From Escherichia coli (GTDB lineage Bacteria > Pseudomonadota > Gammaproteobacteria > Enterobacterales > Enterobacteriaceae), in NCBI RefSeq assembly GCF_013122565.1, contig NZ_CP053258.1: a stretch of 64,000 nt of DNA; one strand, written 5' to 3'. The notes under the pieces were generated by a model. It saw nothing but the letters and a program-made list of their open reading frames with translations, did no database searches and was not told the DNA's origin. A program made the position numbers and the translations under genes. The first letter of the stretch is position 1. Each line of letters begins with the position of its first letter. Below, one piece after another: positions 6,872 through 28,469 of the stretch.

Positions 6872-7960
6872 TCACGGCAGGCGGTGGCGGGCTTGATAAT
6901 AAGCCTGCCAGTGAGCTTCTTTATGTGTGGCGACTCGCTGTTCGAAGTAACGGCGCAGACGAGCGCGATCTTCTTCGTTATCTTTGACGATGGTTCCGGC
7001 AATACAGTCCACCAGATCGGCTGGCTCACCTGCGCGATTCGCTAAAAACCAGGCGCGGACGCCCACAGCGTGGGCCACGTTCACGGCTTCAGCGGTGGAC
7101 ATAATCGCTGTTAGTGTATCCATTGACGTTTTCTTTTCGCCGTTGGCACGCAGATCGCGGAAGGTGCGGACCAGTAACTCCAGTACCGCGTCAGGCACTT
7201 TATGCGGAATACCGCTATGGGCCAGCAAACGCGCCGAAGCACTGGCGACCAGTTCCAGCTCCTGAGCGAAATCCATAATCGGAAAGACAGTTTCAAAATC
7301 GAAGCGACGCTTTAGCGCAGCACTCATCTCATTGACGCCGCGATCGCGCGTATTGGCAGTGGCAATAATATTAAAGCCTTCCCGCGCATAGAGTTGACTG
7401 GCTTCACCAGTGAGTTCCGGCACCGTCATCACCCTGTCAGAAAGCATACCTAACAGACAGTCTTGCACTTCCAGCGGTGTACGCGTTATCTCTTCAAAAC
7501 GGACGATTTTGCCGTCGCGCATTCCCTGGTAAAGCGGGGCAGGGACCAGCGCTTCCGTTGATGGACCATGATTGATAAGCAGAGCGTAGTTCCAGCCGTA
7601 CTTGATTTGATCTTCAGTGGTAGATGCGCCGCCCTGGATGGTTAACCCGGCATCGCCGCTAATAGCGGTTGCCAGTAATTCAGACAGGAGAGATTTTGCG
7701 GTGCCCGGTTCCCCCACCAACATCAAACCGCGCCCGGTGGCAAGAGTGACTAACATACGTTCGACAGCAGAGGGACTAATCACGACTTTACGGCTAATAT
7801 TTTGCGCGCTATCGCCAAGGATAAAAGCACGTGCCGCAGGCAAACTTAACTGCCAACCGGGCGGGCAAGGTGCGTTATCATTTTGTTTTAATTTTGCCAG
7901 TTCATCGGCGTATAACACAGCGGCAGGCGGACGCTGCAGATGATTATTCTGCGGTGACAT
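6872..7960 (-). CDS. yehL: MoxR-like AAA+ ATPase YehL (362 aa)
   Basis: Walker A GEPGTAKS; ORF 6872..8026 trimmed to MSPQNNHLQ start giving 362 aa. Confidence 0.85.
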   Translation of the reverse strand: MSPQNNHLQRPPAAVLYADELAKLKQNDNAPCPPGWQLSLPAARAFILGDSAQNISRKVVISPSAVERMLVTLATGRGLMLVGEPGTAKSLLSELLATAISGDAGLTIQGGASTTEDQIKYGWNYALLINHGPSTEALVPAPLYQGMRDGKIVRFEEITRTPLEVQDCLLGMLSDRVMTVPELTGEASQLYAREGFNIIATANTRDRGVNEMSAALKRRFDFETVFPIMDFAQELELVASASARLLAHSGIPHKVPDAVLELLVRTFRDLRANGEKKTSMDTLTAIMSTAEAVNVAHAVGVRAWFLANRAGEPADLVDCIAGTIVKDNEEDRARLRRYFEQRVATHKEAHWQAYYQARHRLP

Positions 7961-8066
7961 ATATTCATCCCTGAAATGTATTAATGAAATAAACGATATT
8001 TTACGCGCAATAAATGTTTGGTGCATTAGTTGTTTGAGCGAAAAATATCTGGAAAGCAGATCACAG

Positions 8067-8152
8067 TAAATAAAAAAACCTGCTGGTGAGGCAGGTTCTT
8101 TTATTTACTACAGTGACGCTAACTTGCTGATTGTGCAACATTTCGTACCAAC
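8067..8152 (-). ncRNA. Putative antitoxin sRNA (OrzO/OrzP-like), divergent from toxin gene
   Basis: Minus-strand -10 TATAAT (plus 8159-8164) and -35 TTGCAA (8182-8187); 5' region (complement of 8133-8152) matches a direct repeat in the toxin 5' UTR (8298-8322); ends at hairpin 8078-8096 with T-run on minus strand. Boundaries approximate. Confidence 0.5.
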
Positions 8153-8181
8153 GAATAAATTATAACCATATCCACACTCCA

Positions 8182-8209
8182 TTGCAATTCAGTGAGTGAG
8201 ATTTATAAT
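8182..8209 (+). promoter_or_regulatory. Sigma70-like promoter TTGCAA-16-TATAAT for toxin mRNA; palindromic -35 shared with divergent sRNA promoter
   Basis: TTGCAA 8182-8187, TATAAT 8204-8209; predicted TSS ~8216 gives ~174-nt 5' UTR before ATG 8391. Confidence 0.5.
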
Positions 8210-8390
8210 CCTGCCCGTTGGGAGGTTGTGCCGGATCGGACCAATTTTAAGTCCTGGCTGCCGGACGGGTGGTGCCGCAGGCGGTGCCCTGATCCGGAGA
8301 GCAACGTTTCGTACCAACATACGTAAACCAGTATCGACAGGCAGTGTAAGGGTAAGGTGCTGGTGTTGCGCTCCTTAATAAGGAGAGCGG

Positions 8391-8480
8391 ATGGACACGC
8401 TGACACAAAAGTTAACCGTGCTCATTGCCGTACTGGAGTTATTAGTGGCTCTGTTACGGTTGATTGATTTGTTGAAGTAA
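8391..8480 (+). CDS. zorO: 29-aa hydrophobic type I toxin peptide (ZorO/ZorP-like), MDTLTQKLTVLIAVLELLVALLRLIDLLK
   Basis: AGGAGA SD at 8381-8386; single-helix hydrophobic peptide; matches my recollection of EHEC ZorO (not verified by search). Confidence 0.65.
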   Translation: MDTLTQKLTVLIAVLELLVALLRLIDLLK

Positions 8481-8503
8481 CGGGCAAATTGAAACGCATC
8501 TAA

Positions 8504-8526
8504 GGGGGAATACCGTTTCCCCCTTT
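8504..8526 (+). terminator. Intrinsic terminator after toxin ORF
   Basis: gggggaa-taccgt-ttccccc hairpin followed by TTT. Confidence 0.5.
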
Positions 8527-8674
8527 AATAAAATGATTACATCTTCCATTAATTCACCCGATAACTTTTTTCATATTTATAAATTCATCGATTTTATAAT
8601 CAACGTACTATTTGGCCGGGATGTGAATAATCATGGTGGGCTATTGGCGAAAAATATCTGGAAAGTAGATCGCA

Positions 8675-8761
8675 GAAAATAAAAGAACCTGCTGGTGAGG
8701 CAGGTTCTTTTATTTACTACTTTGATGTTAAGTTACTGATAGTGCAACATGGCATCTCAAC
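8675..8761 (-). ncRNA. Putative antitoxin sRNA, copy 2 (OrzO/OrzP-like)
   Basis: Same architecture as copy 1; pairing region is the complement of 8743-8763, cognate UTR site at 8908-8932. Confidence 0.45.
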
Positions 8762-8790
8762 GAACGAATTATAACCACCTCGGGGCCGTG

Positions 8791-8818
8791 TTGCAATTAA
8801 GATAATGAGATTTATAAT
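8791..8818 (+). promoter_or_regulatory. Sigma70-like promoter TTGCAA-16-TATAAT for toxin mRNA copy 2
   Basis: TTGCAA 8791-8796, TATAAT 8813-8818; ~175-nt 5' UTR to ATG 9000. Confidence 0.45.
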
Positions 8819-8999
8819 CCTGACTGTTGGGAAGTTGCGCCGGATCGAACCCATTTCAAGTCCTGGCTACCGGACGGGTGGTGCCGCAGGTAGTGCTCTG
8901 ATCCGGAGTGCAACATGGCGACTCAACATACGTAAACCAGTATCGACAGGCAGTGTAAGGGTAAGGTGCTGGTGTTGCGCTCCTTAATAAGGAGAGCGG

Positions 9000-9089
9000 A
9001 TGGACACGCTGACAAAAAAGTTAACCGTGCTCATTGCCGTACTGGAGTTATTAGTGGCTCTGTTACGGTTGATTGATTTGTTGAAGTAA
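9000..9089 (+). CDS. zorP: 29-aa type I toxin peptide, copy 2 (Q6K variant), MDTLTKKLTVLIAVLELLVALLRLIDLLK
   Basis: AGGAGA SD; one substitution relative to copy 1; O versus P assignment between the two copies is arbitrary. Confidence 0.6.
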   Translation: MDTLTKKLTVLIAVLELLVALLRLIDLLK

Positions 9090-9112
9090 CGGGCAAATTG
9101 AAACGCATCTAA

Positions 9113-9135
9113 GGGGGAATACCGTTTCCCCCTTT
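9113..9135 (+). terminator. Intrinsic terminator after toxin ORF copy 2
   Basis: Same hairpin as 8504-8526. Confidence 0.5.
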
Positions 9136-9270
9136 AATAAAGCTATACTCGTCATACTTCAAGTTGCATGTGCTGCGACTGCGTTCGTTCACCCCGGTCA
9201 CTTACTTTAGTAAGCTCCTGGGAATTCACTCGCTTATCGCCTTCCTGCAACTTGAATTATTTAGAGTATA

Positions 9271-9573
9271 TTATTCTATTTCTTGGTTGAATATATTCTG
9301 TAGTTCGCGATTAAAAATTGCTATTACCGTTTCAGGTGATTCACCTCGTAATTTCCGCTCATCAATACACTCATCTCTTATATAAATCAACGCATCATTT
9401 ATTTGCGGGTCGGCATCATTAAATGTTGGATGTAGCCGGAATCGCTCCAGCCGGTAGACGGAACCTGTAAATAATTCAGAGCATTTATGGATCTCAAGTC
9501 TGAAGGAAAACGGATCTTCAGGTACAGGGACCTCATAATCGTAAATAGCAACCAGCTCTTTTTGCACGATCAT
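9271..9573 (-). CDS. yehK: Small protein YehK
   Basis: 100-aa ORF directly downstream of yehI on the same strand; true start may differ slightly. Confidence 0.6.
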   Translation of the reverse strand: MIVQKELVAIYDYEVPVPEDPFSFRLEIHKCSELFTGSVYRLERFRLHPTFNDADPQINDALIYIRDECIDERKLRGESPETVIAIFNRELQNIFNQEIE

Positions 9574-9632: not shown

Positions 9633-12600
9633 TTAATGGAAAATGACGTCGGGTGCGCTTAACGCCTCACTCAAATCAAACACATCAAGTTCGGCAAAAG
9701 TGACGGATTTATTGTCACGGTACACTCGAAGAGAACGGAAGCTCATTAACGCTTTGCTATCAACATTGTAGTGGTTAAAACCGGGTGAAAACTTAAGGAC
9801 CAGCCGGTACTCGCCCAGGTCATAGACAAATGCATCCTCATAGCCTGACTCCCAGCCTTTGTATCGCATTCCCATAAGCTGCCCAACGGTAGCGGATTTA
9901 CCTTCCCAGCGAGTCAGGCTGTTACTGGTTGACTCGTCAGGTGTGAGCAGCACCGTGCGGCGCGACAACTGGCGAAAAGGCGGCATAATTTCGTAATCGG
10001 CAAAAAGCTGTGCAAATTCACTGCGCATTTCTGCTGTCATTTCTAACGGGTGGGCAATGCCAATCAGAGCATCCGCAGGCAGGTCAATGGGCTCATCTTG
10101 CGCATTGCAGAACTCACCCTCTGCGGCCACACGAAAGGCGTTGAGTAAACGACGCGGTTCATTTGCTGGATACACGCCCCATATTAATCGCTGAGTAACC
10201 AGGCGGGTAAAGGGATGATTAACAAACAGAGAATGAAAATCTGCCAGCGACCAGCGTCGGGTGGTACGTAGGGCTGCTTCAAGACGCGGGAGCAGGTTTT
10301 TGCTCACCTGGGTGGCATCTTTTTTTAGCCCTTTTAGTCGGGCCAGTGCCTCGGGCGCTTTCAGTTGATCGTCATCGGCGCGCAACCGGGGAACACTTTT
10401 CTGGCGAACGTTTTGTTGATCAAAGATAACCGGGTTGAGGTTTTCATCGAAGCGAACGGTAAACTGCCGGGGACCAAAATCAAAAATCAACGCCTGCGGA
10501 TCATCAAGACCCAGTGTTGGGACTAATCTGTCCGCTAACTCTTCCTGGCTTAGCCCGCGATTTTCTGCGACCACCTGAAGAAATTCCGCTGCGTTTTCAC
10601 GTAATGAAGAGGATTTCGCCCGTTGTGATACATGATGCAGCTGTATCAGCGCCATATCATTATTCATCAGGGTAAGTATATTCAGACCACTGACAGCACG
10701 GGCAGATTTGCCTTCTTGTGGCCAGGCGAGGATCTGTGTCGTTAGATCCCGTGCCGTGCTTTCGTCACCAAAGAGACTTAACGCCAGAAATGCCCAGTTG
10801 TCTTTTGCGGGGGCACCAGCTTGTTGCCAGGCGGTGAAGAGATCCCAGGCAAAAGCTGCCAGCGTTTGCGGCTGGCAGAACGATTTCAGTTGTTCCAGTC
10901 CGCTATAAAAACGTCCCCCCTGGGTAAAGCGCAGCATTTCGCCGATAATTTCCAGAGCGTCATCGGTAACAGGTTGATTATTAGTGATAAGTCGAGGCCT
11001 GGACCACATTGCCGGATGCCAGAAATCAGGGGCTTTTGGAATGCGTGCCGGGTAAATCTCTATTTGACTCTGTTTAAGTAATTGTTCCAGGGCAGGCCAT
11101 ACATCAGCGCGATCCCAGCGGTTTGCCACGGTTTGTAGTAATACGCCATGTCCCTGTTCATACAGTAAACGCAGGGCAAGTAATGCAGCTTCGCTATTAT
11201 CGCTGGATTTGGTGAAGACAAGAGGGATAAGTGCAGTAGCCGTATGTTCCGGCCATTGTAAAATCCACTGGCGGGCCAGATCACGCTGCGCCGCGAAACG
11301 TCGCCAGACGCGGGCAACAGGCAGGGCCAGTTCTGTTGCGCCAAAATGAATCAGCAGAGGAAATATCTCTTTTGGATGTCGGGCAAAGGCGGTGTTTAAT
11401 CCAGGCAAAGCATCGGTACCCAGCACACTTAACAGATATTCCCCCCCGGTGTAATGAAAATCAGCCTCGACAATTTGTTGCCAGCACGATACCGCCATTT
11501 CGTGCGGCATCTGCGCGATAAGGTACAGATTCCAAATCCCCCAACGCTTTTTATTACCATAGTAAAATCCGTGCTGAAAAGTTCGCCACCCTCCCATCAG
11601 CGCAATGCTATCTTGTGCCAGTAATGCTTTGGTGGCTTCTTCCCGGTACTGTTTAGATTTGGCCTGATACGCGTGATAAGTACGCAATAGTCCTATTGAT
11701 GTGTATTCTTGCAGTTGCTGAGCATCAAAGGCATCCAACTGTCCATGAAGAAGACGCTTATTAAATTCCAGGCTATGAACGTCAAAACCTAATTCCCGCA
11801 AGAAGGTATCCGCCCCTCTCTTAGCAAGACGTTCGTCAAAAGACATGGCGCTAAAATGGTCAATTGCAGTTTGCTGTTCCGGCGTCCAGTGTTTATTCGG
11901 CGACCTGTACGTTTGCGGTGCAAGCGTAAGATCAGGCAGCGAAAAGTGAGGTATGGAAGTCTTTTTCTTCCTCCCACGCCATGGTGGTGAAACGAGGATT
12001 TCAGGCATTTGGCTGTTATCGGTACTATCAATAACCGGTTTGGGCGGTGCCAATAAATAACTATTCAGTACTGCCCGGGCTTGAGTACTTAACCACTGCA
12101 TCACCTCTTCTGCCAGTTGTGGCTGCGATGCCATCAGCGTTTGTAACAGCGTACGCCAGTATTCATCTCGAGCTTTTTGCTGGGCAGGCAGCTTTTTGTC
12201 TTCGATGATTGGATAACCAGGGCGGGCTGGTGGTTCTTTTAACGCCAGCAGTTCTGCCAGTGCCGCGAGCGTCGCGTGGGGGAAGTTTTTACTGTATTTA
12301 GCCACACGTTGCAGGCTGGGTTTGTTTTTATCAGCCACCAGTAGCAAGGTGCGGATGACCTGCGGATGGTTAATTTGTACCAACAGACTGCCGCAATCTT
12401 CTTTATGGGCATACATCGCGAGGCGCGGAATGGCTGCCAGTCCTTGTTCGCGCAAAAGGGCGGCGCAGGCCGCGTAGCCGAAGTGGTTTTCATGCGACAT
12501 GTAGCTGGCTTCGCGATCGCTAAATATATCCTGACTCCAGTAGTGATCGAGTTTCCTCACCGCTGTGGGGTCATTAGCAACAACTTTTAGCCACTCCTTA

Positions 12601-13280
12601 GAATGATAATGAGTCCGTGGGCATTCAAGGCCTATCAACTCATTGGCGATTTCTGGTTTTTCCGGGAGGATCAGCGCAATAAAAGGGCGGCGAACTTTGG
12701 TTATTCCTGGCAGTGCGGCAATGAGTTTGTCGGCGCAACGCTGCCAGCAGCTTTCCTCTGCCAGAGAGAGATGCTTACGCAGTCGGAGATCGAATTCGTT
12801 ATAGGTTTCTGATCGATAACCATAGCCATAGTCCTCGTTCTGATACTGCAATGTCACTACCAGAGGATCACTCTCATAACACCGCGCAATAAACTGGCGT
12901 GCAATCACCACCTCAGTCGCATATTCCAGCCCCTCTTGTTGGACGATTTCGTCGAGTAACTGTTGGCTGTCATTTTGCGCGATACAGGCTAGCGCCGCCA
13001 TTGTCCGGGCCGGGATTGAGGGTTTGTGTTCGCCGATCAAGTTGATGGCCTGCGTGATGGCGGACTGCCACTCCAGTGAAAAATTCTCATAACGCCAGAC
13101 AATGTTTTTTTTCTTCTCAGCTTTTTGTAGCAATTCATCACCCAGTGTCTGAATGATGCTTTCAGTGATAACAGGCACTGGTTCGCCCGGCCAATTGCGA
13201 TGGCTGAGTGGTGTTTTGCCTTTTTTATATTTCAGTTCCAGTTGGGCGTTATCCGCCAGCCACGGTAATTCCTTGTCCAT
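9633..13280 (-). CDS. yehI: YehI, 1215-aa paralog of the molR family lacking the N-terminal WGR-like domain
   Basis: C-terminal two-thirds align with the four upstream paralogs (shared AWP..K.A..GL.IL, DRL.P.LGLD, LLPPFRQL blocks); AAGGAA SD 9 nt after upstream stop. Confidence 0.85.
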   Translation of the reverse strand: MDKELPWLADNAQLELKYKKGKTPLSHRNWPGEPVPVITESIIQTLGDELLQKAEKKKNIVWRYENFSLEWQSAITQAINLIGEHKPSIPARTMAALACIAQNDSQQLLDEIVQQEGLEYATEVVIARQFIARCYESDPLVVTLQYQNEDYGYGYRSETYNEFDLRLRKHLSLAEESCWQRCADKLIAALPGITKVRRPFIALILPEKPEIANELIGLECPRTHYHSKEWLKVVANDPTAVRKLDHYWSQDIFSDREASYMSHENHFGYAACAALLREQGLAAIPRLAMYAHKEDCGSLLVQINHPQVIRTLLLVADKNKPSLQRVAKYSKNFPHATLAALAELLALKEPPARPGYPIIEDKKLPAQQKARDEYWRTLLQTLMASQPQLAEEVMQWLSTQARAVLNSYLLAPPKPVIDSTDNSQMPEILVSPPWRGRKKKTSIPHFSLPDLTLAPQTYRSPNKHWTPEQQTAIDHFSAMSFDERLAKRGADTFLRELGFDVHSLEFNKRLLHGQLDAFDAQQLQEYTSIGLLRTYHAYQAKSKQYREEATKALLAQDSIALMGGWRTFQHGFYYGNKKRWGIWNLYLIAQMPHEMAVSCWQQIVEADFHYTGGEYLLSVLGTDALPGLNTAFARHPKEIFPLLIHFGATELALPVARVWRRFAAQRDLARQWILQWPEHTATALIPLVFTKSSDNSEAALLALRLLYEQGHGVLLQTVANRWDRADVWPALEQLLKQSQIEIYPARIPKAPDFWHPAMWSRPRLITNNQPVTDDALEIIGEMLRFTQGGRFYSGLEQLKSFCQPQTLAAFAWDLFTAWQQAGAPAKDNWAFLALSLFGDESTARDLTTQILAWPQEGKSARAVSGLNILTLMNNDMALIQLHHVSQRAKSSSLRENAAEFLQVVAENRGLSQEELADRLVPTLGLDDPQALIFDFGPRQFTVRFDENLNPVIFDQQNVRQKSVPRLRADDDQLKAPEALARLKGLKKDATQVSKNLLPRLEAALRTTRRWSLADFHSLFVNHPFTRLVTQRLIWGVYPANEPRRLLNAFRVAAEGEFCNAQDEPIDLPADALIGIAHPLEMTAEMRSEFAQLFADYEIMPPFRQLSRRTVLLTPDESTSNSLTRWEGKSATVGQLMGMRYKGWESGYEDAFVYDLGEYRLVLKFSPGFNHYNVDSKALMSFRSLRVYRDNKSVTFAELDVFDLSEALSAPDVIFH

Positions 13281-13289
13281 GCTCTTTCC

Positions 13290-16200
13290 TTATTCAAACA
13301 GGGCTTCAATATCATTAATTAACTCGCTGGTGGTGATGGCATCGAGTACGGAGAACTGCGCTTCCTGAGTTGAATTATTCCTCCAGCCATAGCTTTCTGC
13401 TTTGCCTTCCCATAGCCACAGCTTGCTTAAGAGCTGCTCGGCGCTAAGTTCGGCTGGCGACATACCCACAGCAAAGCCTTCATCGATTTCCATGATTAAC
13501 GACCAGCGGCCCAGGGGTTTGATCATCCAGCAGATCCAGCCTCCATCCTGTGGTTCGCCCTTTATCCAGCCTTTATTCGCCAGCCCCATGACCCGACCAC
13601 TCGGGCATTTTCTGCCTGCCCAGCGGGTCAGTTCGCTGGCGTTGCGCTCGGCTTCTGTCAGGGCGTAACTGTTACGGTCAAGCTGACGGAACGGTGGTAG
13701 CAGTTCGTAGTCGGCAAAAAGCTGACCAAAGGCGGCAGCATCCGTCGGTGATATTTCCAGAACGTGAGGAATACCAATAGAGATATCGCCTTCCGGCAGG
13801 GTGAAAAGATCATCGTCAGCGGTGCTGTAACTGTTATCTTCCGCCACGCGAAAGCACGCCAGCAGCTGGTTTTCGGCGCTATAAACGCCCCAAATCAGAC
13901 GACGGGTTAAGTGGCGAACCAGCGGGTGCTCAACCAGGAAAAGCTGAAAGTTTTCCGGCGACCAGCGGCGGCGCAGGCACATGGCGGATTCCAGCCTTGC
14001 TACCTGCTGGGCGGCGACGGTACGCGCATCTTTTTTCAGCAATTTGTAGCGGTTTACCGCCTCATCAGCCCGCGATTCATCATCGCTTTTATTGGGTTTA
14101 GGTAAGTCTTTCAGGCGGCTGCCGGAAACATCACGCACAAACGGTTTTAAGGTTTCATCAAAGCTGACGGTGAACTGGCGTGAGCCGAAATCCAGCAGCA
14201 ACGAACCGTTATCATCCAGACCGAGATCCGGGGCCAGGCGATCTTCTAGCTCCGCCACCGTGAGTTCGCGGCTTTCGGCAATGTCGGCAATTTTTTCTTT
14301 TGCCCGCTCCTGTAATGCTTTGAATTTCAGTTTCTGGGCGATGCCGTTAAGTTGCATCAAGGCGATATCACTACCGATAGTGGCGAGAATATCCAACCCA
14401 ACGGTGGCGCGTTTATGCTGGGATTCACCAGGCCAGGCACGGATTAATGGCGTCAGTTTGCGGGCGGTGTCATCGTTACCGAGAACACCTAACGCGTTGA
14501 ACGCCCAGCTCTCTTTCGACGGCGCGCCAGCGGTCTGCCAGGCGGTAAACAGATCCCAGGCAAATCCCGCCAGTGAGTCGGGGGTACAGGCATCTTTCAC
14601 CTGCAATAATCCCGGATACAGTGCCTCTTCCTGAGGGAAGCGGAGCATTTCACCGAGGTAGAGTAGGGCGCTATCGGGCAGTGATTGGGCGTTTGCTTTT
14701 AATACCGGGCGCGTCCAGAGCGATGGCTGATAAAAGGCCGGAAGAGTGGGGATTTTTGTCGGGTGATTATCTAAGGGATCGAGCGCAAGCAGAGCGTTCA
14801 CCGCGTCTGTTACTTCCGGCTGGTTATAACGCCGGGCGATTTCTTGCAGTAATGGCTGATGACCGTTTTCGGTAAGCATACGCAAGGCAGCGCGGGCGTT
14901 ATCCTGTGCTTCACCGGCTTTGCCGAGCGCGGCAGGCAGCAGGCCGGTAATGGCGTGTTCCGGGTATTTCAACAGCCAGCTACGGGCGTCTTGTCGTAGG
15001 GTTTTGAGTTTGTTGAAGGCGCGGGCAATCAGTGGCGCTAATTCGATAGCCGCAAAATATTGTGCTATAGGCAGCGCTTCTTGCGGATAGCGAGATGCTG
15101 AGTGGATAAAACCTGTTAAACCAGCAAGTCGAAGATGCAACATTACTTGTTTTGCACCTGTATGTGGTTCTTTACTAAGGATGTTCCACATCTCGATAGC
15201 TTTATTAATGGGTAAAACATGGAGTGAAGAAAGATTCCATTCGCCCTGATAAGGGGAGTTATAGGACTTAAAAGCATCAATCAGCGCTGAATAATCTTCA
15301 CGCTGCCAGGCATCCAGTGCTATTTCTGGAACATCAATATAGCCTCTATGTTTGTTCCAATCCCAGCGGTTGAATCCCAGGGAGGTCAGAAAAGCTTTTT
15401 CTCCCTCAGCTTGCTGATGAGGTTGCCAGTTATGCTGCACTTGCAGTGTTTTGCTTTTTGTTTCATTTATTGTACAGAAGGATTCTAGGGATAATGGTGC
15501 TAAATCCAGCACCGAAATCGTCGATTTTTTCTTTTTAGCCAGCCAGGGCGGTGAGATTAGTACGGCAGGCAGCAAATCGGCGTTCGCATAAACTGAAGGT
15601 TGTGTCAGTTGTTGCAGGCATGACTTAAGTTCGGTAACCGCCGGAGCAGATAGCCAGGGAATTACCTGCTCTGCTAATGTTGGTTGTGAGATAAGCATTG
15701 TCATTAGCATCATGCGCCAGCGCTTTTCATCTTTTTGTGCCAGAAGTTCTGCTAATGCCGCCAGCGCTGCATGTGGAAAGCGAACGAAAGCCTTTGTCAT
15801 GCGATCGTGGCAACGCTTTCCCTGCTCGCTTGCATGGATAAGTAGTGTAAGTGCCTGGGGGTGGTTGATATGCATCAACACTTCCCCACATGTGTCACCA
15901 GCAGCGTAAGGAGCAAAACGGGCCAGCGCAGCGACACCTTGCTCCTTGAGTATCGTTGCACACCAGATTTTACCGCCGTAATAATCATCAAATACCTGCC
16001 CAGGCTGTCCTGGATAGTATTTTCCCAGTTCTGCCAATACCTGCTCGTCGGTGGTCGTCAGTTTCAGCCATTCCAGCGCATATAACCCTTTTTGTCCACA
16101 AAGATGTCTGGCAATCTCATGAGCTACTTCTGGTTTTTCCGGCAACAATAGTGCAACCAGTGGCTGGTGCCACGTGGGCATGGTTCCGAGAGCGGCAATC

Positions 16201-17048
16201 AGTTTGTCGGCGCAGCGCTGCCATACATCGTCATTTGCAAGTGAGAGATGCTTACGCAGGCGCATTTCAACCGAAGCGAAGCGTAACAGATAGCCAGGCT
16301 GCCTGTTATCCGGGGTAACCGTAATGAGATGGGCATCATAATCCCAGTCGAAGCGGATGAATTGCAATGCAATGACAACCTCAGTGGCATATTCCAGACC
16401 ACCTTCCTGGACAATTTGATCCATTAGCTCTTCATGATCGTTACGATTGAAGCCTTGTTCCAGCGCAACCAGTACCGCCAGAACCATCGGTGGTAGCGTG
16501 GTGCTAATTGGCGAGTCGATAAGGCCTACGGCTTGTGTAATTGCCTGCTGCCAGTCCAGTGAACAGGTGCTGTAATCGAAGGTGAGCACCTTTTTAAAAC
16601 GCCGGTGAGTATTCGCGGCGACGGAGCGTAGCAGGGTTAATTCATTCTCCTGTGGCACAGGAGCGCCAGGCCAGCGTCGATGACTTAGTGTGGTTGGCGC
16701 AACCTCTGTCGGTAAAATGATTTGGGTGTCGTCTGCCAGCCAGGGGAGGTGGTCTCCAGTAAATGCCGGTTTGTCTTGTGGCAAAGGGGTTATTTCCGGG
16801 CATTCGATAACCTTGCCGGGCGCAGATGTCGGTGTCATCACGGATACTTCTTCTACGTAGCCCTTTTTTGTTTTCTCCGTAATCAGCTTCAGTTCCGCTT
16901 TTTCCGCCGCTGCAGCATCTGCAAAGCTTTTTACCTGGCTTTGCCCGTTAGTACCGACTTTGCCCCAGGTAATATGCAGCTCGTTTCCCTGCTGCTCCAC
17001 CGCCCAGAATTTATGTGATTTTTCATCCTGATAAATATAGGTTTTCAT
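13290..17048 (-). CDS. MolR-family protein, paralog D (1252 aa), N-terminal WGR-like domain
   Basis: Intact ORF; N-terminus MKTYIYQDEKSHKFWAVEQQGNELHITWGKVG; start 12 nt downstream of paralog C stop with AAGGAA SD. Confidence 0.85.
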   Translation of the reverse strand: MKTYIYQDEKSHKFWAVEQQGNELHITWGKVGTNGQSQVKSFADAAAAEKAELKLITEKTKKGYVEEVSVMTPTSAPGKVIECPEITPLPQDKPAFTGDHLPWLADDTQIILPTEVAPTTLSHRRWPGAPVPQENELTLLRSVAANTHRRFKKVLTFDYSTCSLDWQQAITQAVGLIDSPISTTLPPMVLAVLVALEQGFNRNDHEELMDQIVQEGGLEYATEVVIALQFIRFDWDYDAHLITVTPDNRQPGYLLRFASVEMRLRKHLSLANDDVWQRCADKLIAALGTMPTWHQPLVALLLPEKPEVAHEIARHLCGQKGLYALEWLKLTTTDEQVLAELGKYYPGQPGQVFDDYYGGKIWCATILKEQGVAALARFAPYAAGDTCGEVLMHINHPQALTLLIHASEQGKRCHDRMTKAFVRFPHAALAALAELLAQKDEKRWRMMLMTMLISQPTLAEQVIPWLSAPAVTELKSCLQQLTQPSVYANADLLPAVLISPPWLAKKKKSTISVLDLAPLSLESFCTINETKSKTLQVQHNWQPHQQAEGEKAFLTSLGFNRWDWNKHRGYIDVPEIALDAWQREDYSALIDAFKSYNSPYQGEWNLSSLHVLPINKAIEMWNILSKEPHTGAKQVMLHLRLAGLTGFIHSASRYPQEALPIAQYFAAIELAPLIARAFNKLKTLRQDARSWLLKYPEHAITGLLPAALGKAGEAQDNARAALRMLTENGHQPLLQEIARRYNQPEVTDAVNALLALDPLDNHPTKIPTLPAFYQPSLWTRPVLKANAQSLPDSALLYLGEMLRFPQEEALYPGLLQVKDACTPDSLAGFAWDLFTAWQTAGAPSKESWAFNALGVLGNDDTARKLTPLIRAWPGESQHKRATVGLDILATIGSDIALMQLNGIAQKLKFKALQERAKEKIADIAESRELTVAELEDRLAPDLGLDDNGSLLLDFGSRQFTVSFDETLKPFVRDVSGSRLKDLPKPNKSDDESRADEAVNRYKLLKKDARTVAAQQVARLESAMCLRRRWSPENFQLFLVEHPLVRHLTRRLIWGVYSAENQLLACFRVAEDNSYSTADDDLFTLPEGDISIGIPHVLEISPTDAAAFGQLFADYELLPPFRQLDRNSYALTEAERNASELTRWAGRKCPSGRVMGLANKGWIKGEPQDGGWICWMIKPLGRWSLIMEIDEGFAVGMSPAELSAEQLLSKLWLWEGKAESYGWRNNSTQEAQFSVLDAITTSELINDIEALFE

Positions 17049-17060
17049 TGCAAATTCCTT

Positions 17061-18500
17061 TTAATCAAACAGTGATTCAATATCGTTAATCAGCTCGCTG
17101 GCAGTGATGTCGTCGAGCACGGAGAAGGGATAAACCGATTTGCGCGGCGTCAGTTTGTACAACTGAATGTGCTCAATTTTTTGGTTATCGCTGATTTCGG
17201 TGACGGGCAATCCAACACAGAAGCCGGGTGTCACACTCAGTTCGACGTAGCCATCATCCACAGCTTTATAAAATGAGTAATAGCCGCCACCATCCAGAAC
17301 ATCGCCCCGTTGCCAGCCTTTATTCATCAGCCCGGCGACGCGCCAACTCGCTGCCTGGCGACCAGCCCAGCGCTGCAAATCGTTGCTGTTTTTTTCTGAA
17401 TCAGAGAGCTGAGACCAGGGGCGATCAAGTTGACGGAACGGTGGCAGGAGTTCGTAGTCAGAGAACAGTTGGGCAAATTCAGCAGCCTGTGGGGCCGGGA
17501 TTTCCAGCACATGCGGGATACCGATACAGCCCTGCGCAAGGGTAAACGGGGTATCCTGACCGTCGCTAAAACTGCCATCCTCCGCCACGCGAAAACAGCA
17601 AATAAGGTGATTATCAGCGTCATAAATGCCCCACATCAGACGTTGGGTGATATGACGAACCAGGGGATGCTCAACCAGAAACAGGCGGAACTGTTCTGCA
17701 GTCCAGCGGCGACGCTGACACATGGCGGCTTCCAGACGCGAAATCTGTTGTGCAGCTACCGTGCGGACATCTTTTTTCAACAACTTGTAGCGATTTACCG
17801 CTTCCTCAGCCAGCGTTTCATCATCGCTTTTGTTCGGTTTGGGCAGGTCTTTCAGACGGTTGCCGGAAGTATCGCGCACAAACGGTTTTAAGGATTCATC
17901 AAAGCTGACGGTGAACTGGCGTGGGCCGAAATCCAGCAGCAGCGAACCGTTATCATCCAGACCGAGATCGGGCGCTAACCGGTCTTCCAGCTCTGCGACA
18001 GTGAGCTGGCGGCTTTCGGCAATCTGGGCGATTTTAGTTCTAGCCTGATCCTGCAAGGCTTTAAATTTTAGCTTTTGCGCAATGCCGTTAAGCTGCATCA
18101 GGGCGATATCGCTGCCGATAGCAGCAAGAATATCCAGCCCGACAGTGGCGCGTTTATGCTGGGATTCCCCCGGCCAGGCGCGGATGAGCGGGGTGAGTTT
18201 GCGGGCGGTGTCATCGTTACCCAGAATCCCCAGTGTGGTAAATGCCCAGTTATCTTTAGCTGAGCCACTGGCAGATTCCCAACTGAGGAAGAGATCCCAG
18301 GCAAAATCGGCAAGAGATTGCGGGGTACAGGCCTCGATTACCTGTGTAATTCCTGGGTAAAGGGTGGCTTCGCGGGGGAAAGAGAGCATGGTGCACAGGT
18401 GCAGGATGGCTGAATCTGAAAGTGCCTTGCCGTTACTGCGCAGAAGCGGGCGGTGCCATACTTCTGGCGAACACCACCCAGGGAGTTTAGCGATTTTCTG
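17061..18500. repeat. ~1.45-kb near-identical block shared by paralogs C and B (copy 1)
   Basis: C-terminal ~480 codons of paralog C are nearly identical to paralog B (20910..22350); antisense spurious ORFs are duplicated too. Confidence 0.8.
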
Positions 18501-20897
18501 CGGATAGTTTTCCAGCGGATCTGCTGCTAAAAAGTCGGTAAGTGCAGTCATTACCTCAGGTTGTTGGTAACGGCTGGCAATTTTTTTCAGCAACGCGAGA
18601 TGACCATTATTGGCCAGGTAGCGTAATGTCATCCGGGCATCTTGTTGTTCTTTAACTGGTTTACTCAGCGCAATGGGCAGCAGCCCGGTAATGGCATGTT
18701 CCGGGTAGGTGGTGAGCCAATATTCAGCGACATCTCGTACGGATTTTAACTGGCAAAATGCGCGGGCCATCAGCAGGGCAACTTCAGTGGAACCGAATTG
18801 AGCGGCGAGGGGAACCGCCTCCTTAGGGTTTACCAGGGCATAACGCAACAGACCTGGTACCGTAGATAGACCAAATCGCTCAACCACTTTTTCAGCACCC
18901 ACGAGGTGCATGTGTGAGAGTCCATTCCAGATTGAGAGCGCTTTCTCTGCTGGTAGACGAGTGAGTATGGATACAGAAAAGGTAATAAAACCTTCATAAT
19001 CATACTTTGGTCGGGTATTTAACAACGATTCATAATCTTCCGTTTCCAGCAGACGAATGGCCGTTTTTGTTACGCCCCATTTAATATCAAATCTTTCTGG
19101 ATCAGGATTATTCTCATCAAATGCTCCGCTTCTGAATCCCAGGCGGCGTAAGACTTCAGCAGTAGAAGGTATTTCTGCTTCGGGTTGTGGCTGAGGTTTG
19201 GGGCCAATGGACTCCAGAGGTAATACGGGTAATGTAAATATCGTCGTGGCTGATTTATTCTTTTTCTTCAGCCAAATTGGATTAGTTAATATACCGGGTA
19301 ACTCACAAGCATTGGCTATCTCTTCTTTAGCATGCAATTGAGGGAAATAACTGAATAAAAGTTGTTTCTGTTCCTCACTCAACCAGGGCATTGTATTACG
19401 CAAGGTTTGAGCATTACCTAATACAATTTGTTCCATCAGGCGAGAATACCTCAGATTTTTAGCACTAAGCAAAGCTGCAGTAAGGGCATAAAGCGCCGAT
19501 TCTGGGTACTTCGAAGCCGAAATTTCGACACCTATGGCACATTCCTCTTTGATAAACAACGTAACGACATCAGGATGGTTAATTTCCTGAAGTGCGTGTC
19601 TGACAGGATAACTATCGTTAACGCCCTCTTGCAGACGTGACAGCGCATTAAGACCTTGTTCACGCAGTAGGGTTTTAATACAACGCTTCGTCATATCGCC
19701 TCCCCATCCCGTTGTGAGTTCAAGTTGATGGAAATGCTTCAGCAGACACGTTGCTTGTGGGTCAGTTGTGACAAGGGAAAGCCACTCAATCTCTGGGTAA
19801 TCATGCATAGGGGCAATTTCCAGGGCTATCTGATTGGCAATATCTGGTTTTTCTGGTAGCAAAAAAGCAATTAATGGGCGTCTGCGGGCAGGCAGTGAAG
19901 GGAGAGCATCTATGAGTTTATTAGCACAGCGTTGCCAGGTTTCCTCATCTGTGTGCGAAAGGTGTTCTCGTAAACGTAACTCTATTTCGTCGCTGAATCC
20001 ATATTTGTAGCGCATGTCGGAAATATCGTGGCTAAGGCTTACTACAGGTAGATAATAATTGTCTGCCATTTCCCCTCTTCTCAGCGCACTAAAAAGACTA
20101 TTGTAATGAAGTTTTAAAGTGGCATTTTTTGTAGGATCGGTATTTGCGTCGTCAGTCATTTGTACATGCTGTATAGCGATAACTAACTCAGTGGCATACT
20201 CAAGGCCTCGCAGTTGCACTATGCTATCCAGCCATGTATGAGGGCGACCGGGGCAGCCGATAATTAATCTTGTTAGTGTCAATATGGCGTCGGAAAGCAA
20301 CGATCCGTCTTGCTGTAATTTATGGATGCGCGAAATAGTTTCCTGTAACGCCAATTGCCATTCTGACTGGCATTGGCTGACATCGAGCTTTTGCAGACAG
20401 GCAAGGTAAAATGCTGCCCAATATGGGTACTTTTTTAGTTGCATCCAGAAGAAACCATCTTTATCAACAATGTCCAGAGGATCATTAATCAAGTGACGAT
20501 GGCTAAACGGCGCGGGTTCATCATTGGCAAAAATAACAATTGACTCACCGTCCTTCAGCCAGGGCGGCGTTTCCAACGTGGGCATCGCTTGTGGCTGTGC
20601 CGTTTCAGGCGTTGTGAAGTTTCCGGTTGGTATTGCTAACTCTTGTACTGAAATTGTGCTTGATATCGGAGAATTTATGATGGTTTCTGGCGAACCATGC
20701 TTCACATATCCCTTCTTCATCTTCTCCGCAATCAGCTTCAGTTCCGCTTTTTCCGCCGCTGCAGCATCTGCAAAGCTTTTTACCTGGCTTTGCCCGTTAG
20801 TACCGACTTTGCCCCAGGTAATATGCAGCTCGTTTCCCTGCTGCTCCACCGCCCAGAATTTATGTGATTTTTCATCCTGATAAATATAGGTTTTCAT
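17061..20897 (-). CDS. MolR-family protein, paralog C (1278 aa), N-terminal WGR-like domain
   Basis: Intact ORF; C-terminal ~480 aa nearly identical to paralog B. Confidence 0.85.
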   Translation of the reverse strand: MKTYIYQDEKSHKFWAVEQQGNELHITWGKVGTNGQSQVKSFADAAAAEKAELKLIAEKMKKGYVKHGSPETIINSPISSTISVQELAIPTGNFTTPETAQPQAMPTLETPPWLKDGESIVIFANDEPAPFSHRHLINDPLDIVDKDGFFWMQLKKYPYWAAFYLACLQKLDVSQCQSEWQLALQETISRIHKLQQDGSLLSDAILTLTRLIIGCPGRPHTWLDSIVQLRGLEYATELVIAIQHVQMTDDANTDPTKNATLKLHYNSLFSALRRGEMADNYYLPVVSLSHDISDMRYKYGFSDEIELRLREHLSHTDEETWQRCANKLIDALPSLPARRRPLIAFLLPEKPDIANQIALEIAPMHDYPEIEWLSLVTTDPQATCLLKHFHQLELTTGWGGDMTKRCIKTLLREQGLNALSRLQEGVNDSYPVRHALQEINHPDVVTLFIKEECAIGVEISASKYPESALYALTAALLSAKNLRYSRLMEQIVLGNAQTLRNTMPWLSEEQKQLLFSYFPQLHAKEEIANACELPGILTNPIWLKKKNKSATTIFTLPVLPLESIGPKPQPQPEAEIPSTAEVLRRLGFRSGAFDENNPDPERFDIKWGVTKTAIRLLETEDYESLLNTRPKYDYEGFITFSVSILTRLPAEKALSIWNGLSHMHLVGAEKVVERFGLSTVPGLLRYALVNPKEAVPLAAQFGSTEVALLMARAFCQLKSVRDVAEYWLTTYPEHAITGLLPIALSKPVKEQQDARMTLRYLANNGHLALLKKIASRYQQPEVMTALTDFLAADPLENYPQKIAKLPGWCSPEVWHRPLLRSNGKALSDSAILHLCTMLSFPREATLYPGITQVIEACTPQSLADFAWDLFLSWESASGSAKDNWAFTTLGILGNDDTARKLTPLIRAWPGESQHKRATVGLDILAAIGSDIALMQLNGIAQKLKFKALQDQARTKIAQIAESRQLTVAELEDRLAPDLGLDDNGSLLLDFGPRQFTVSFDESLKPFVRDTSGNRLKDLPKPNKSDDETLAEEAVNRYKLLKKDVRTVAAQQISRLEAAMCQRRRWTAEQFRLFLVEHPLVRHITQRLMWGIYDADNHLICCFRVAEDGSFSDGQDTPFTLAQGCIGIPHVLEIPAPQAAEFAQLFSDYELLPPFRQLDRPWSQLSDSEKNSNDLQRWAGRQAASWRVAGLMNKGWQRGDVLDGGGYYSFYKAVDDGYVELSVTPGFCVGLPVTEISDNQKIEHIQLYKLTPRKSVYPFSVLDDITASELINDIESLFD

Positions 20898-20909
20898 TGC
20901 AAATTCCTT

Positions 20910-22350
20910 TTAATCAAACAGTGATTCAATATCGTTAATCAGCTCGCTGGCAGTGATGTCGTCGAGCACGGAGAAGGGATAAACCGATTTGCGCGGCGTC
21001 AGTTTGTACAACTGAATGTGCTCAATTTTTTGGTTATCGCTGATTTCGGTGACGGGCAATCCAACACAGAAGCCGGGTGTCACACTCAGTTCGACGTAGC
21101 CATCATCCACAGCTTTATAAAATGAGTAATAGCCGCCACCATCCAGAACATCGCCCCGTTGCCAGCCTTTATTCATCAGCCCGGCGACGCGCCCACTCGC
21201 TGCCTGGCGACCAGCCCAGCGCTGCAAATCGTTGCTGTTTTTTTCTGAATCAGAGAGCTGAGACCAGGGGCGATCAAGTTGACGGAACGGTGGCAGGAGT
21301 TCGTAGTCAGAGAACAGTTGGGCAAATTCAGCAGCCTGTGGGGCCGGGATTTCCAGCACATGCGGGATACCGATACAGCCCTGCGCAAGGGTTAACGGGT
21401 TATCGTGACCGTCGCTAAAACTGCCATCCTCCGCCACGCGAAAACAGCAAATAAGCTGATTATCAGCGTCATAAATGCCCCACATCAGACGTTGGGTGAT
21501 ATGACGAACCAGGGGATGCTCAACCAGAAACAGACGGAACTGTTCTGCAGTCCAGCGGCGACGCTGACACATGGCGGCTTCCAGACGCGAAATCTGTTGT
21601 GCAGCTACCGTGCGGACATCTTTTTTCAACAACTTGTAGCGACTTACCGCTTCCTCAGCCAGAGTTTCATCATCGCTTTTGTTCGGTTTGGGCAGGTCTT
21701 TCAGACGGTTGCCGGAAGCATCGCGCACAAACGGTTTTAAGGATTCATCAAAGCTGACGGTGAACTGGCGTGGGCCGAAATCCAGCAGCAGCGAACCGTT
21801 ATCATCCAGACCGAGATCGGGCGCTAACCGGTCTTCCAGCTCTGCGACAGTGAGCTGGCGGCTTTCGGCAATCTGGGCGATTTTAACTCTTGCCTGATCC
21901 TGCAAGGCTTTAAATTTTAGCTTTTGCGCAATGCCGTTAAGCTGCATAAGAGCGATATCGCTGCCGATAGCAGCAAGAATATCCAGCCCGACAGTGGCGC
22001 GTTTATGCTGGGATTCCCCTGGCCAGGCGCGGATGAGCGGGGTGAGTTTGCGGGCGGTGTCATCGTTACCCAGAATCCCCAGCGCGGTAAATGCCCAGTT
22101 ATCTTTAGCGGAGCCACTGGCAGATTCCCAACTGAGGAAGAGATCCCAGGCGAAATCAGCAAGAGACTGCGGAGTACAGGCCTCGATTACCTGTGTAATC
22201 CCGGGGTAAAGGGTGGCTTCACGGGGGAAAGAGAGCATGGTGCACAAGTTCAGGATAGCTGAGTCAGGAAGTGCCTTGCCGTTACTGTGCAGAAGCGGGC
22301 GATGCCATACTTCTGGCGAACACCAGGTGGGGAGTTTGGCGATTTTCTGC
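20910..22350. repeat. ~1.45-kb near-identical block shared by paralogs C and B (copy 2)
   Basis: See 17061..18500. Confidence 0.8.
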
Positions 22351-24650: not shown

Positions 24651-24662
24651 TGCTAAATCCTT

Positions 24663-27600: not shown

Positions 27601-28469
27601 ATATCCGGGCGTTCAGGGAGCAGTAACGCCGCAAAAGGTTGCCGTGCTGGAGATAGCGAGGGAATAGCCGCGAGTACTTTATCTACACAGCGTTGCCACT
27701 CATCTTCTGAAGCGAGTGAAAGATGATGACATAGACGTTGATGCCAACTAGGTAGCGATTCTGCTTCGTGATTAGGTGGAATGATGGTGGTTACTGCGCC
27801 TTTTACTGGTTTATATCTAAGTTGAATAGCGAGAAGGGCAATTTCAACGGCGCTTTCCAGACCACAGCGAATGACTAAGTCATCGACCAGTTCATCTGCA
27901 GAGTAAGAGTTCCAGAAACTCCAGAGCAATGCTGCATCAGATTGCGCACTCCCTGTCTGTTGATTACCCTGAACTCGCATTTGTAACTCAGCAAAAGCAT
28001 GCTGCCAGTTTTCTGGATAAGAACGGTAATTGTTGTCGGGATCATATGCCCTGGTGTTATCTGCAATACGCTTCCATATCTCACCGTCTTTGCGCAGATA
28101 ATTGATCTCTCTGGGGCGAGAGCGATGAGGGAAAGCAAATCGATTAATATCGTCAGTTACCGGAATGACTGCATCATCAGCCAGCCATGGGCGTTTGTTT
28201 TTACTCTCAAGGGAAGTTTCAACTTCAGGAGTGGCTTTGGTGCTGGAGATATGCACGTTTGCTGAAGCATCTTCCACATAGCCTTTTTTCGTTTTCTCTG
28301 CGATAAGCTTTAGTTCCGCTTTTGCCGCTGCCGCAGCATCCGCAAAACTTTTTACCTGGCTTTGCCCTTGGGTGCCAACTTTTCCCCAACTGATATGCAA
28401 CTCGTTTCCCTGTTGCTCCACCGCCCAGAATTTATGTGATTTTTCGTCCTGATAGATAAAGCGTCTCAT
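24663..28469 (-). CDS. molR: MolR-family protein, paralog A (1268 aa), first gene of the array next to metG
   Basis: Intact ORF; N-terminus MRRFIYQDEKSHKFWAVEQQGNELHISWGKVG; occupies the K-12 molR (pseudogene) position. Confidence 0.8.
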   Translation of the reverse strand: MRRFIYQDEKSHKFWAVEQQGNELHISWGKVGTQGQSQVKSFADAAAAAKAELKLIAEKTKKGYVEDASANVHISSTKATPEVETSLESKNKRPWLADDAVIPVTDDINRFAFPHRSRPREINYLRKDGEIWKRIADNTRAYDPDNNYRSYPENWQHAFAELQMRVQGNQQTGSAQSDAALLWSFWNSYSADELVDDLVIRCGLESAVEIALLAIQLRYKPVKGAVTTIIPPNHEAESLPSWHQRLCHHLSLASEDEWQRCVDKVLAAIPSLSPARQPFAALLLPERPDIANAMALRYADQNVPAMTWLRLVITDDTALSTVEKYDFPPLYRDFRNFRAYLAMLLANNGIRGVSQILLEFTEEHSDNPTYLFERNSETENLVKWLWKTNHPDAIQILILGVIGKKKHLEYLSKACQKHPAAALAAYATLLAIHEDAQWRNALIKLITITPELVCDVIPWVNAKAAGILSECRPQSVAEECEYATADMLPELFVSPPWMTKEKKKNTPVFDLPVLPVPSVSDITPEIAKKLTRTYLITRFQQIAQQQATKQTLFTDLAPMKKASWEKHLIPLTPEQQILWHLGFEKWRESGEKIYEKIPAPQSAVDALLRFDFPALNAEFVQYHNNAYKSWNLIALCYLPGQQAISFLNQIVKEDNYSGEGNILALFGSAAIPAFMTCLQRDPRRLCFFPFFLGVSELALPMAQQLQKKMSYEDARNWLTDYPRHAAAGLLPVALGKKGKDRDCARQALRLLVNLNQRETIEEIAQGYNQPDVLAALATLFDSDPLEEYPAKIAPLPGFYQFTLWHRPRLKSNNLPLPDDAMRHLGTMLSFPRDITAYAGLDIIRETFTRESLADFGWDLYTAWTEAGAPAKENWAFTSLGILGNDDTARKLTPLIRAWPGESQHKRAVSGLDVLADIGSDVALMLLNGIARKIKFKALQEHAREKINIVAENRGLTMAELEDRLAPDLGLDSNGSLTLDFGPRQFTVGFNETLKPVVRDANGKVLKDLPKPNQSDDQTLATDAVNLFKQLKKDVRAIASQQIDRLEQAMCQRRRWTAEQFRLFLVEHPLVRHLTRRLLWGVYNDENALITCFRVAEDSTYSDAQDELFTLPAGNIGIPHVLEIPPESAAAFRQIYIDYELLPPFQQLDRGSYHLADNERDAHELSRWNGRLCQAGRIVGLERRGWQRLEESGSIYAMRKSTPYGALELETEPFSLIYGETGYSDLLPVESVKITAPYDRYGKQSSPTFSVLNDITASELINDIESLFD

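Follow-up and report, generated by a model that had tools for sequence, protein, structure and literature searches.

INTRODUCTION

The closest described relative of the locus reported here is zorO-orzO of Escherichia coli O157:H7, for which we draw on Fozo 2010 (PMC2887945), Wen 2014 (PMC3919570), and Wen 2017 (PMC5397157). In strain EDL933, too, zor-orz has been reported from the yehL-yehK site (PMC2887945). Overproduction of ZorO is toxic and OrzO rescues from it, with RNase III contributing in part to repression (PMC3919570). The full-length zorO leader is poorly translated, and the form without the first 28 nt is active: the region termed EAP opens in this form, with the RBS still in a stem. 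[quoted passage not shown]

The alleles of this family are told apart by short sequence differences. The triplet V1 that defines OrzO is GAA; in OrzP it is ACG, and OrzP rescues from ZorO only with V1 swapped (PMC3919570). Functional pairing calls for 15 continuous nt, or for 17 discontinuous nt with one internal mismatch (PMC3919570; restated in PMC11264685). On the toxin side, ZorP is ZorO with the substitution T3S, and the orphan orzP of MG1655 has been reported as identical to OrzP of EDL933 (PMC11264685). A third zor-orz locus type, zorQ/orzQ, was named in 2024 (Shore et al. 2024, PMC11264685). Its authors recognized it by a BLASTn bit score above 650 to a reference, and A20S is a common, though not universal, protein variant in ZorQ (PMC11264685).

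Here, we describe positions 8037-9135 of a 64-kb window (the whole stretch of E. coli DNA that was analyzed), which an initial annotation had labeled as a tandem pair of zorO-orzO- and zorP-orzP-like modules. With a probability that we put at roughly 95%, the region is a chromosomal zor-orz type I toxin-antitoxin locus in its two-copy form, namely zorO-orzO followed by a third-class unit, apparently of the zorQ/orzQ type. This is an already described system, and the initial annotation had read it correctly except for the label of unit 2 and the exactness of the core pairing there.

RESULTS AND DISCUSSION

Two tandem units between yehL and yehK

Between yehL and yehK, the region carries two tandem units of 490 bp each, repeated at an interval of 609 bp. 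This agrees with the tandem pair of ~490-bp units that had been proposed, as does the repeat structure: the direct-repeat blocks 8038-8168/8647-8777 (86% identical) and 8182-8481/8791-9090 (92% identical) both have a spacing of 609 bp. Between unit 1 and unit 2, 52 of 490 positions differ. The frame of the locus is as follows.

6872-8026, minus strand: yehL, flanking the locus
8527-8645: AT-rich spacer of ~120 bp between the units, from repeat analysis
9271-9573, minus strand: yehK, flanking the locus

The locus lies at the chromosomal site that characterizes the family, between yehI/yehK and yehL, and the same yehL-yehK site is occupied in O157:H7 Sakai (with a gap of 1.24 kb) and in other E. 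coli.

As a side observation on the surrounding DNA, the flanks of the locus are only 94-97% identical to complete E. coli genomes, which raised the possibility of an Escherichia other than E. coli. The metG-yehB region, however, is 97.9% identical to MG1655, and the species representatives of Escherichia whittamii and two other Escherichia species reach only ~85-92% identity, so that the DNA is assigned to an E. coli lineage absent from the complete-genome set.

Unit 1 is zorO-orzO

The features of unit 1 are listed below in order of position.

8072-8152, minus strand: orzO antitoxin sRNA gene, predicted 81 nt, 5' end GUUGGUACGAAAUGUUGCAC, V1 (+9 to +11) GAA, with hairpin and U run
8159-8187, minus strand: orzO promoter, -35 TTGCAA at 8187-8182, 17-nt spacer, -10 TATAAT at 8164-8159
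8182-8209, plus strand: zorO promoter, TTGCAA-16-TATAAT, from the promoter scan
8217-8390, plus strand: zorO 5' UTR, 174 nt, matching PMC5397157
8299-8318, plus strand: predicted OrzO target site in the zorO leader, 73-92 nt upstream of the ATG, in agreement with PMC2887945 and PMC5397157
8380-8385 (+164 to +169), plus strand: zorO RBS, AAGGAG, predicted to lie in a hairpin (unpaired probability 0.07), position as published
8391-8480, plus strand: zorO ORF, 29-aa toxin MDTLTQKLTVLIAVLELLVALLRLIDLLK, exact match to UniProt ZORO_ECO57
8502-8525, plus strand: zorO terminator hairpin AAGGGGGAAUACCGUUUCCCCCUU, from repeat/inverted-repeat and fold analysis

The initial annotation had placed a 29-aa peptide in each unit and had suggested a search against ZorO. 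The two ORFs are present, at 8391-8480 (MDTLTQKL...) and 9000-9089 (MDTLTKKL...), and the peptide of unit 1 is exactly UniProt ZORO_ECO57 ("Small toxic protein ZorO"). The zor1 mRNA region at 8217-8526 (310 nt) is 100% identical to several O157:H7 genomes, unit 1 as a whole is 99.4% identical to the Sakai zorO-orzO unit, and its sRNA has 81 of 81 nt in common with Sakai OrzO. The exact peptide, the O157:H7-identical mRNA, the site shared with Sakai, and the Rfam matches given below all bear out the zor-orz identity that had been proposed for this locus. A search of NCBIfam with both peptides returned no family, a null result that carries no information, as NCBIfam apparently lacks a model for the 29-aa toxin.

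Unit 2 and a third allele class

Unit 2 repeats the layout of unit 1, with the following features.

8681-8761, minus strand: second orz sRNA gene, apparently of the Q allele class, predicted 81 nt, 5' end GUUGAGAUGCCAUGUUGCAC, V1 GCC
8768-8818, both strands: divergent promoters with common -35 TTGCAA at 8791-8796 and -10s at 8773-8768 (minus) and 8813-8818 (plus)
8826-8999, plus strand: zor 5' UTR, 174 nt, same as unit 1 from +103 on
8908-8927, plus strand: predicted sRNA target site GUGCAACAUGGCGACUCAAC, 20-nt duplex
8989-8994, plus strand: zor RBS, in the 174-nt leader
9000-9089, plus strand: zor ORF, 29 aa, MDTLTKKLTVLIAVLELLVALLRLIDLLK, ZorO carrying Q6K owing to one C-to-A substitution at 9015
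9111-9134, plus strand: zor terminator hairpin, from repeat and fold analysis

The sRNA of unit 2 begins GUUGAGAUGCC, which gives V1 as GCC; E. coli 042, GF3-3, LD91-1, 2012C-4502, and SH19PTE6 have an identical sRNA 5' end. Unit 2 is 97.6 to 98.8% identical to the Q-class units of these five strains and only ~90% identical to the P and O units of Sakai (90.4% to P). Among the E. coli units compared, identity is ~89-91% between the three classes (O, P, and Q) and 97.6% or more between units of one class. What places unit 2 in the third class is its 98.2% identity to the LD91-1 unit encoding the A20S "ZorQ" variant, with which it has its sRNA 5' end and target in common. Unit 2 thus apparently represents the third allele class, of zorQ/orzQ type, by way of this A20S-encoding LD91-1 unit rather than by way of the reference zorQ/orzQ sequence. 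We found no published rescue experiment for a Q-class pair in the literature.

None of 5,426 complete E. coli genomes matched the Q6K codon exactly over 66 nt (98.5% at best), and the exact Q6K peptide is absent from a collection of 15 billion proteins. Judged from these comparisons, Q6K looks like a strain-specific SNP and the sole private feature of the locus.

Promoters, transcript ends, and sRNA genes

In each unit, one palindromic -35 hexamer is common to the zor and orz promoters. The initial annotation had described TTGCAA-16-TATAAT toxin promoters and a divergent minus-strand -10 on the palindromic -35, and we found these in both units; in unit 2, they read TTGCAA-16-TATAAT at 8791-8818 on the plus strand and TTGCAA-17-TATAAT at 8796-8768 on the minus strand. 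An orz gene divergent from the toxin gene, with TTGCAA/TATAAT promoters, is a mark of the family that both units carry, and these hexamers are conserved at 99% or more (Table 3 of PMC11264685). A consensus scan returned 4 promoter-like sites against a shuffle mean of 4.0, with no enrichment. As the site count is not above that of shuffles, the scan alone is no proof, and the weight lies in position and duplication.

Transcription starts were predicted by homology. We placed the zorO +1 at G8217, 7 nt past the -10; the published RBS at +164 to +169 then lands exactly on AAGGAG at 8380-8385. With this start, the 174-nt UTR that had been proposed holds and agrees with the literature (PMC5397157). 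The Rfam model RF02083 begins at sRNA +8, and the sRNA start was likewise set 7 nt past the -10, so that the predicted sRNAs run from 8152 to 8072 and from 8761 to 8681, each 81 nt long when counted through the U run. An earlier estimate of a ~85-nt minus-strand sRNA is well matched by this predicted 81-nt length and by the RF02083 hits, and the size fits the literature (PMC2887945 and PMC5397157).

Both sRNAs gave full-length matches to RF02083 (OrzO-P), at 8072-8145 with 88.8 bits and at 8681-8754 with 90.2 bits, above the gathering score of 60. Both are predicted to end in a 12-18-bp A/U-flanked hairpin, and their folds have z-scores of -5.1 (orzO) and -5.8 (unit 2 sRNA) relative to shuffles. 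In the terminator scan, the orz hairpin was reported on the plus strand only, and it was probably missed on the minus strand because the stem absorbs the U run there; the minus-strand orz terminator call is based on the Rfam structure and the fold. We also saw a weak, subthreshold Rfam match to ohsC on unit 2 orz (35 bits against a gathering score of 50).

Predicted pairing between each sRNA and its cognate leader

On the plus strand, the orz 5' end is a direct repeat of the cognate leader site, which makes the minus-strand sRNA its complement. Within the window, a single further near-match exists for each target, and it lies inside the cognate orz (1 mismatch for unit 1 and 2 for unit 2); two near-matches for a target occurred in 0 of 100 shuffles. 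The OrzO target site falls inside the published +73 to +102 region. The unit 1 duplex has 18 contiguous pairs, one being G·U, and the 20-nt duplex of unit 2 has 18 Watson-Crick pairs, one G·U, and one A·A, with runs of 13 and 6.

The initial annotation had also claimed that a core heptamer differs between the units and matches within each. The within-unit match stands for unit 1 (7/7, TTCGTAC) but not in full for unit 2, where 5 of 7 positions agree (GGCATCT versus GGCGACT). As RNA, the unit 2 differences are one G·U and one A·A, and the same two occur in every Q-class unit examined (five other strains).

The related claim of copy-specific pairing fared better. Predicted duplex energies are -31.3 (unit 1) and -34.4 (unit 2) kcal/mol for the cognate pairs, compared with -23.4 and -16.0 kcal/mol for the noncognate pairs. 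In the cognate pairs, 18-19 positions are paired and the longest run is 13-18, whereas the longest noncognate runs are 9 and 7, and only the cognate pairs pass the published pairing thresholds. Because a 7-9-nt duplex core differs between the units while its flanks are common, we infer that the tandem units are insulated from each other and that each sRNA should silence only its own toxin mRNA.

Predicted folds and mechanism

The toxicity, rescue, processing, and RNase III dependence considered here come from the literature on a sequence identical to unit 1, and by extrapolation unit 2 would work by the same published mechanism. Each unit is expected to have two divergent sigma-70 promoters on one palindromic -35 hexamer. 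The plus strand would give a ~310-nt mRNA with a 174-nt leader and the 29-aa inner-membrane toxin ORF, and the minus strand would give an sRNA of ~81-85 nt. In the mechanism published for zorO-orzO, the full-length leader is translationally inert because its RBS is held in a hairpin and its 5' end is paired with the "EAP" region at +73 to +102. Once the first 28 nt are removed, the EAP region, a putative ribosome standby site, is exposed, and pairing of the Orz 5' end with the 3' part of the EAP blocks translation and triggers RNase III cleavage.

The MFE folds of both units and a 13-unit consensus fold all join +1 to +22 to +74 to +102 and keep the RBS paired. The predicted folds therefore have the 174-nt leader with the RBS in a stem and the 5' end-EAP pairing by which the family is recognized. 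Truncation by 28 nt in silico had modest effects, raising the unpaired probability of the EAP region from 0.32-0.34 to 0.40-0.42 and that of the target from 0.35-0.40 to 0.47-0.51. In the 13-unit alignment, doubly compensatory changes were seen in 0 of 102 pairs of the mRNA helices, and every one-sided change keeps its pair. With 0 doubly compensatory changes, the fold rests on thermodynamics and on the published probing of the O allele, and covariation neither supports nor weakens the published structure.

Alternative readings

Unit 2 could be O157:H7 zorP-orzP, as the initial annotation had it, which would make the window's locus an EDL933-type O+P pair. Unit 2 stands second in a tandem pair at the same site, its sRNA matches an Rfam family named OrzO-P, and its toxin is one residue off ZorO. 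However, the sRNAs of the Sakai P unit and of MG1655 orzP both begin GUUGGAACACG with V1 as ACG, whereas unit 2 begins GUUGAGAUGCC with GCC. ZorP is defined by T3S and the unit 2 toxin by Q6K, identity is 90.4% to the Sakai P unit against 97.6-98.8% to Q-class units, and P, O, and Q stand as separate units in one three-unit genome. The zorP-orzP identity of unit 2 is refuted by sequence comparison, and we regard an O+P pair as extremely improbable. A different concern is that unit 2 might be a decaying or deregulated copy, in which the antitoxin no longer controls the toxin or the toxin is inactive. This would fit the 5/7 core match, a Q6K allele present in 0 of 5,426 genomes and absent from the protein collection, and the report that charged residues modulate ZorO toxicity. 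Yet the A·A and G·U are the same in all Q-class units examined, from five other strains, and a lone mismatch is found at this duplex position in the P allele too. The unit 2 duplex is the most stable of all (-34.4 kcal/mol) and passes the 17-discontinuous-nt rule. Its promoters, RBS, ORF length, and terminators are intact, its mRNA, one codon apart, matches zorO at 100% from +103 as far as the terminator, and the published K7Q and D2K variants stay toxic (PMC9860968, as for the charged residues). Decay of unit 2 is thus quite improbable in our view.

A broader alternative concerns what the sRNAs are for. The Orz sRNAs might act mainly on trans-encoded targets, with toxin control secondary. About 30% of E. 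coli keep orz without zor, orz-only loci are widespread and expressed (PMC11264685), and MG1655 keeps orzP with only ~30 nt of the zor leader. Set against this, the sRNA seeds have no near-match in the 64-kb window except their own zor leader, direct repression of zorO by OrzO has been shown experimentally (PMC3919570 and PMC5397157), and no other Orz target is known. [quoted passage not shown]

Divergence between units and order of the array

None of the 52 inter-unit differences lies in +103 to +174 or in the 3' UTR/terminator, and 1 lies in the ORF. Inter-unit identity is 67% in the Orz site, 75% in the orz pairing region, and 72% in the inter-promoter region. In the consensus fold, the variable core at +90 to +98 sits in an internal loop, between invariant helices formed with the mRNA's own 5' end. 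Our interpretation is that this pattern of divergence would fit selection for insulated recognition acting on an otherwise homogenized repeat.

Other genomes show how such units are arranged. SH19PTE6 has three units in the order yehL-P-O-Q-yehK. The two-unit orders are O-Q here and in GF3-3 and 2012C-4502, P-O in Sakai, and P-Q in 042 and LD91-1, and all two-unit arrangements seen are consistent with a P-O-Q order. The O157:H7 strain PV15-279 has a single P-class unit; the comparison with an O157:H7 O+P locus was made with Sakai. Among 5,426 complete E. coli genomes, 3,397 have one or more full zor, and the median carrier has it in two places; our counts are in line with the 2024 survey, in which 42% of assemblies had two copies and 25% had one (PMC11264685). 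The zor RBS hairpin is matched exactly outside E. coli as well, in the species representatives of Escherichia whittamii (with two units, one P and one O) and of two more Escherichia species.

These arrangements can be drawn into a wider picture, which we hold tentatively. The yehL-yehK site would be home to an ordered array, yehL-P-O-Q-yehK, of as many as three specificity alleles insulated from one another, and the two-unit loci would be different deletion derivatives, as would orzP alone in K-12. The 7-9-nt core would diverge under selection against cross-talk, and the rest of the mRNA would plausibly be kept identical between paralogues by gene conversion. The private Q6K variant, for its part, might tune toxicity. 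Taken whole, from the ordered three-allele array with its deletion derivatives to the anti-cross-talk core, the homogenized remainder, and Q6K tuning, this picture has in our estimation slightly less than an even chance of being right.

Implications for annotation

RefSeq has no feature under the zor-orz units in the complete E. coli genomes examined, so it helps annotation that the toxin ORFs and the sRNAs of both units can be recovered from the raw sequence. Beyond correct annotation, the importance of the locus is small. It illustrates well how, in nature, paralogous sRNA-toxin pairs in tandem are kept from cross-talk by a pairing core that is short and variable, a principle shown for the O and P alleles in 2014 (PMC3919570), with allele diversity surveyed in 2024 (PMC11264685).

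Comparison with known systems

Among type I systems, tisB-istR-1 and shoB-ohsC resemble zor-orz in having a divergent sRNA complementary over ~18-21 nt to a long structured toxin leader, and in their activation by 5' processing and standby-site logic. They differ in that their toxin sequences are unrelated and in that they are single-copy, without paralogue-specific recognition cores.

Within the family, zorP-orzP of O157:H7 and the orphan orzPmg of MG1655 have the same architecture and are ~89-91% identical to both units described here. The zorP-orzP duplex spans 20 nt, and its single internal mismatch falls at the position of the mismatch in the Q class. The difference lies in the recognition core (V1 as ACG) and in the T3S toxin, and the window holds no P unit. 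Closer to unit 2 is, apparently, zorQ/orzQ: units in 042, GF3-3, LD91-1, and others, one of which encodes the A20S "ZorQ" variant, have the same sRNA 5' end and target. The toxin differs, as unit 2 carries Q6K and neither the ZorO sequence nor A20S. Closest overall is zorO-orzO of O157:H7 EDL933/Sakai, with the same toxin, 310-nt mRNA, and 81-nt sRNA as unit 1, along with the same promoters, 174-nt leader, V1 of GAA, 18-nt duplex, and site. What differs is the neighbor: counted from yehL, the Sakai order is P then O, and here it is O then Q.

Unit order and possible loss of units

The zor-orz allele classes O, P, and Q occur together in E. coli SH19PTE6 (L011), where three units are arranged as yehL-P-O-Q-yehK (L011 1711-3419). 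All of the two-unit genomes that we examined, in which the toxin-antitoxin locus likewise lies between yehL and yehK, carry subsets of this array that keep the same order, and this retention of order therefore suggests that the two-unit loci arose by loss of units from a three-unit array.

The pairing between sRNA and mRNA also varied among the allele classes. The duplexes of the P allele (Sakai unit) and the Q allele (unit 2, target site 8908-8927) each contain one internal mismatch, located in both cases opposite the A that is invariant at sRNA +7. This position is paired in the O allele (unit 1, target site 8299-8318).

The orz-only state of K-12 and an ERIC-like palindrome

Comparison with MG1655 (L005) and a repeat scan of the window gave the following two features.

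8248-9247, stretch absent from MG1655, with the junction at L005 14308-14313 in the alignment
9144-9270, imperfect palindrome of ~127 bp, just downstream of unit 2

The MG1655 alignment stops at 8247, or approximately +31 of the zor leader, and restarts at 9248, within the right arm of the palindrome. The "orz-only" state of K-12 is therefore explained by a deletion of ~1 kb, one endpoint of which lies inside the ERIC-like repeat element. This deletion takes out the zor gene together with the second unit.

The two arms of the palindrome are 25 nt each (9144-9168 and 9246-9270), and its core on the minus strand, GTGAATTCCCAGGAGCTTACTAAAGTAAGTGACCGGGG, is presumably a match to the enterobacterial repetitive intergenic consensus (ERIC) element. 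Against the Rfam family V_AS5, the palindrome scored 40 bits, which is below threshold (gathering score, 96). In our search of complete E. coli genomes, the number of matching places per genome had a median of 6, a figure that the ERIC-like palindrome probably accounts for.

Annotation and distribution of zor-orz

Among the matches listed for 8037-9135, nearly every complete E. coli genome had "none" as the RefSeq feature beneath its zor-orz units. The toxin ORFs of zor-orz routinely go unannotated, and so do its sRNAs.

A 2014 paper described the zor-orz locus as restricted to E. coli and Shigella (PMC3919570), and a 2010 paper had already noted it in E. fergusonii as well (PMC2887945). We found intact P- and O-class units in the species representatives of Escherichia whittamii, Escherichia sp. 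E1V33, and Escherichia sp. MOD1-EC7003, at the same yeh locus.

Other features of the window

9633-28469, minus strand, five tandem yehI-like ORFs of 1,215 to 1,278 aa
28610-30652, metG, next after the five yehI-like ORFs
39506-39602, plus strand, TPP riboswitch (Rfam RF00059, 71.2 bits versus a gathering score of 54.3)

In matching genomes, the yehI-like ORFs are labelled as DUF4132 or WGR-plus-DUF4132 proteins, and just 3 complete E. coli genomes cover at least 80% of 9633-28469. Whereas the window has five yehI-like ORFs here, the MG1655 counterpart holds only yehI, a yehH pseudogene, and yehF.
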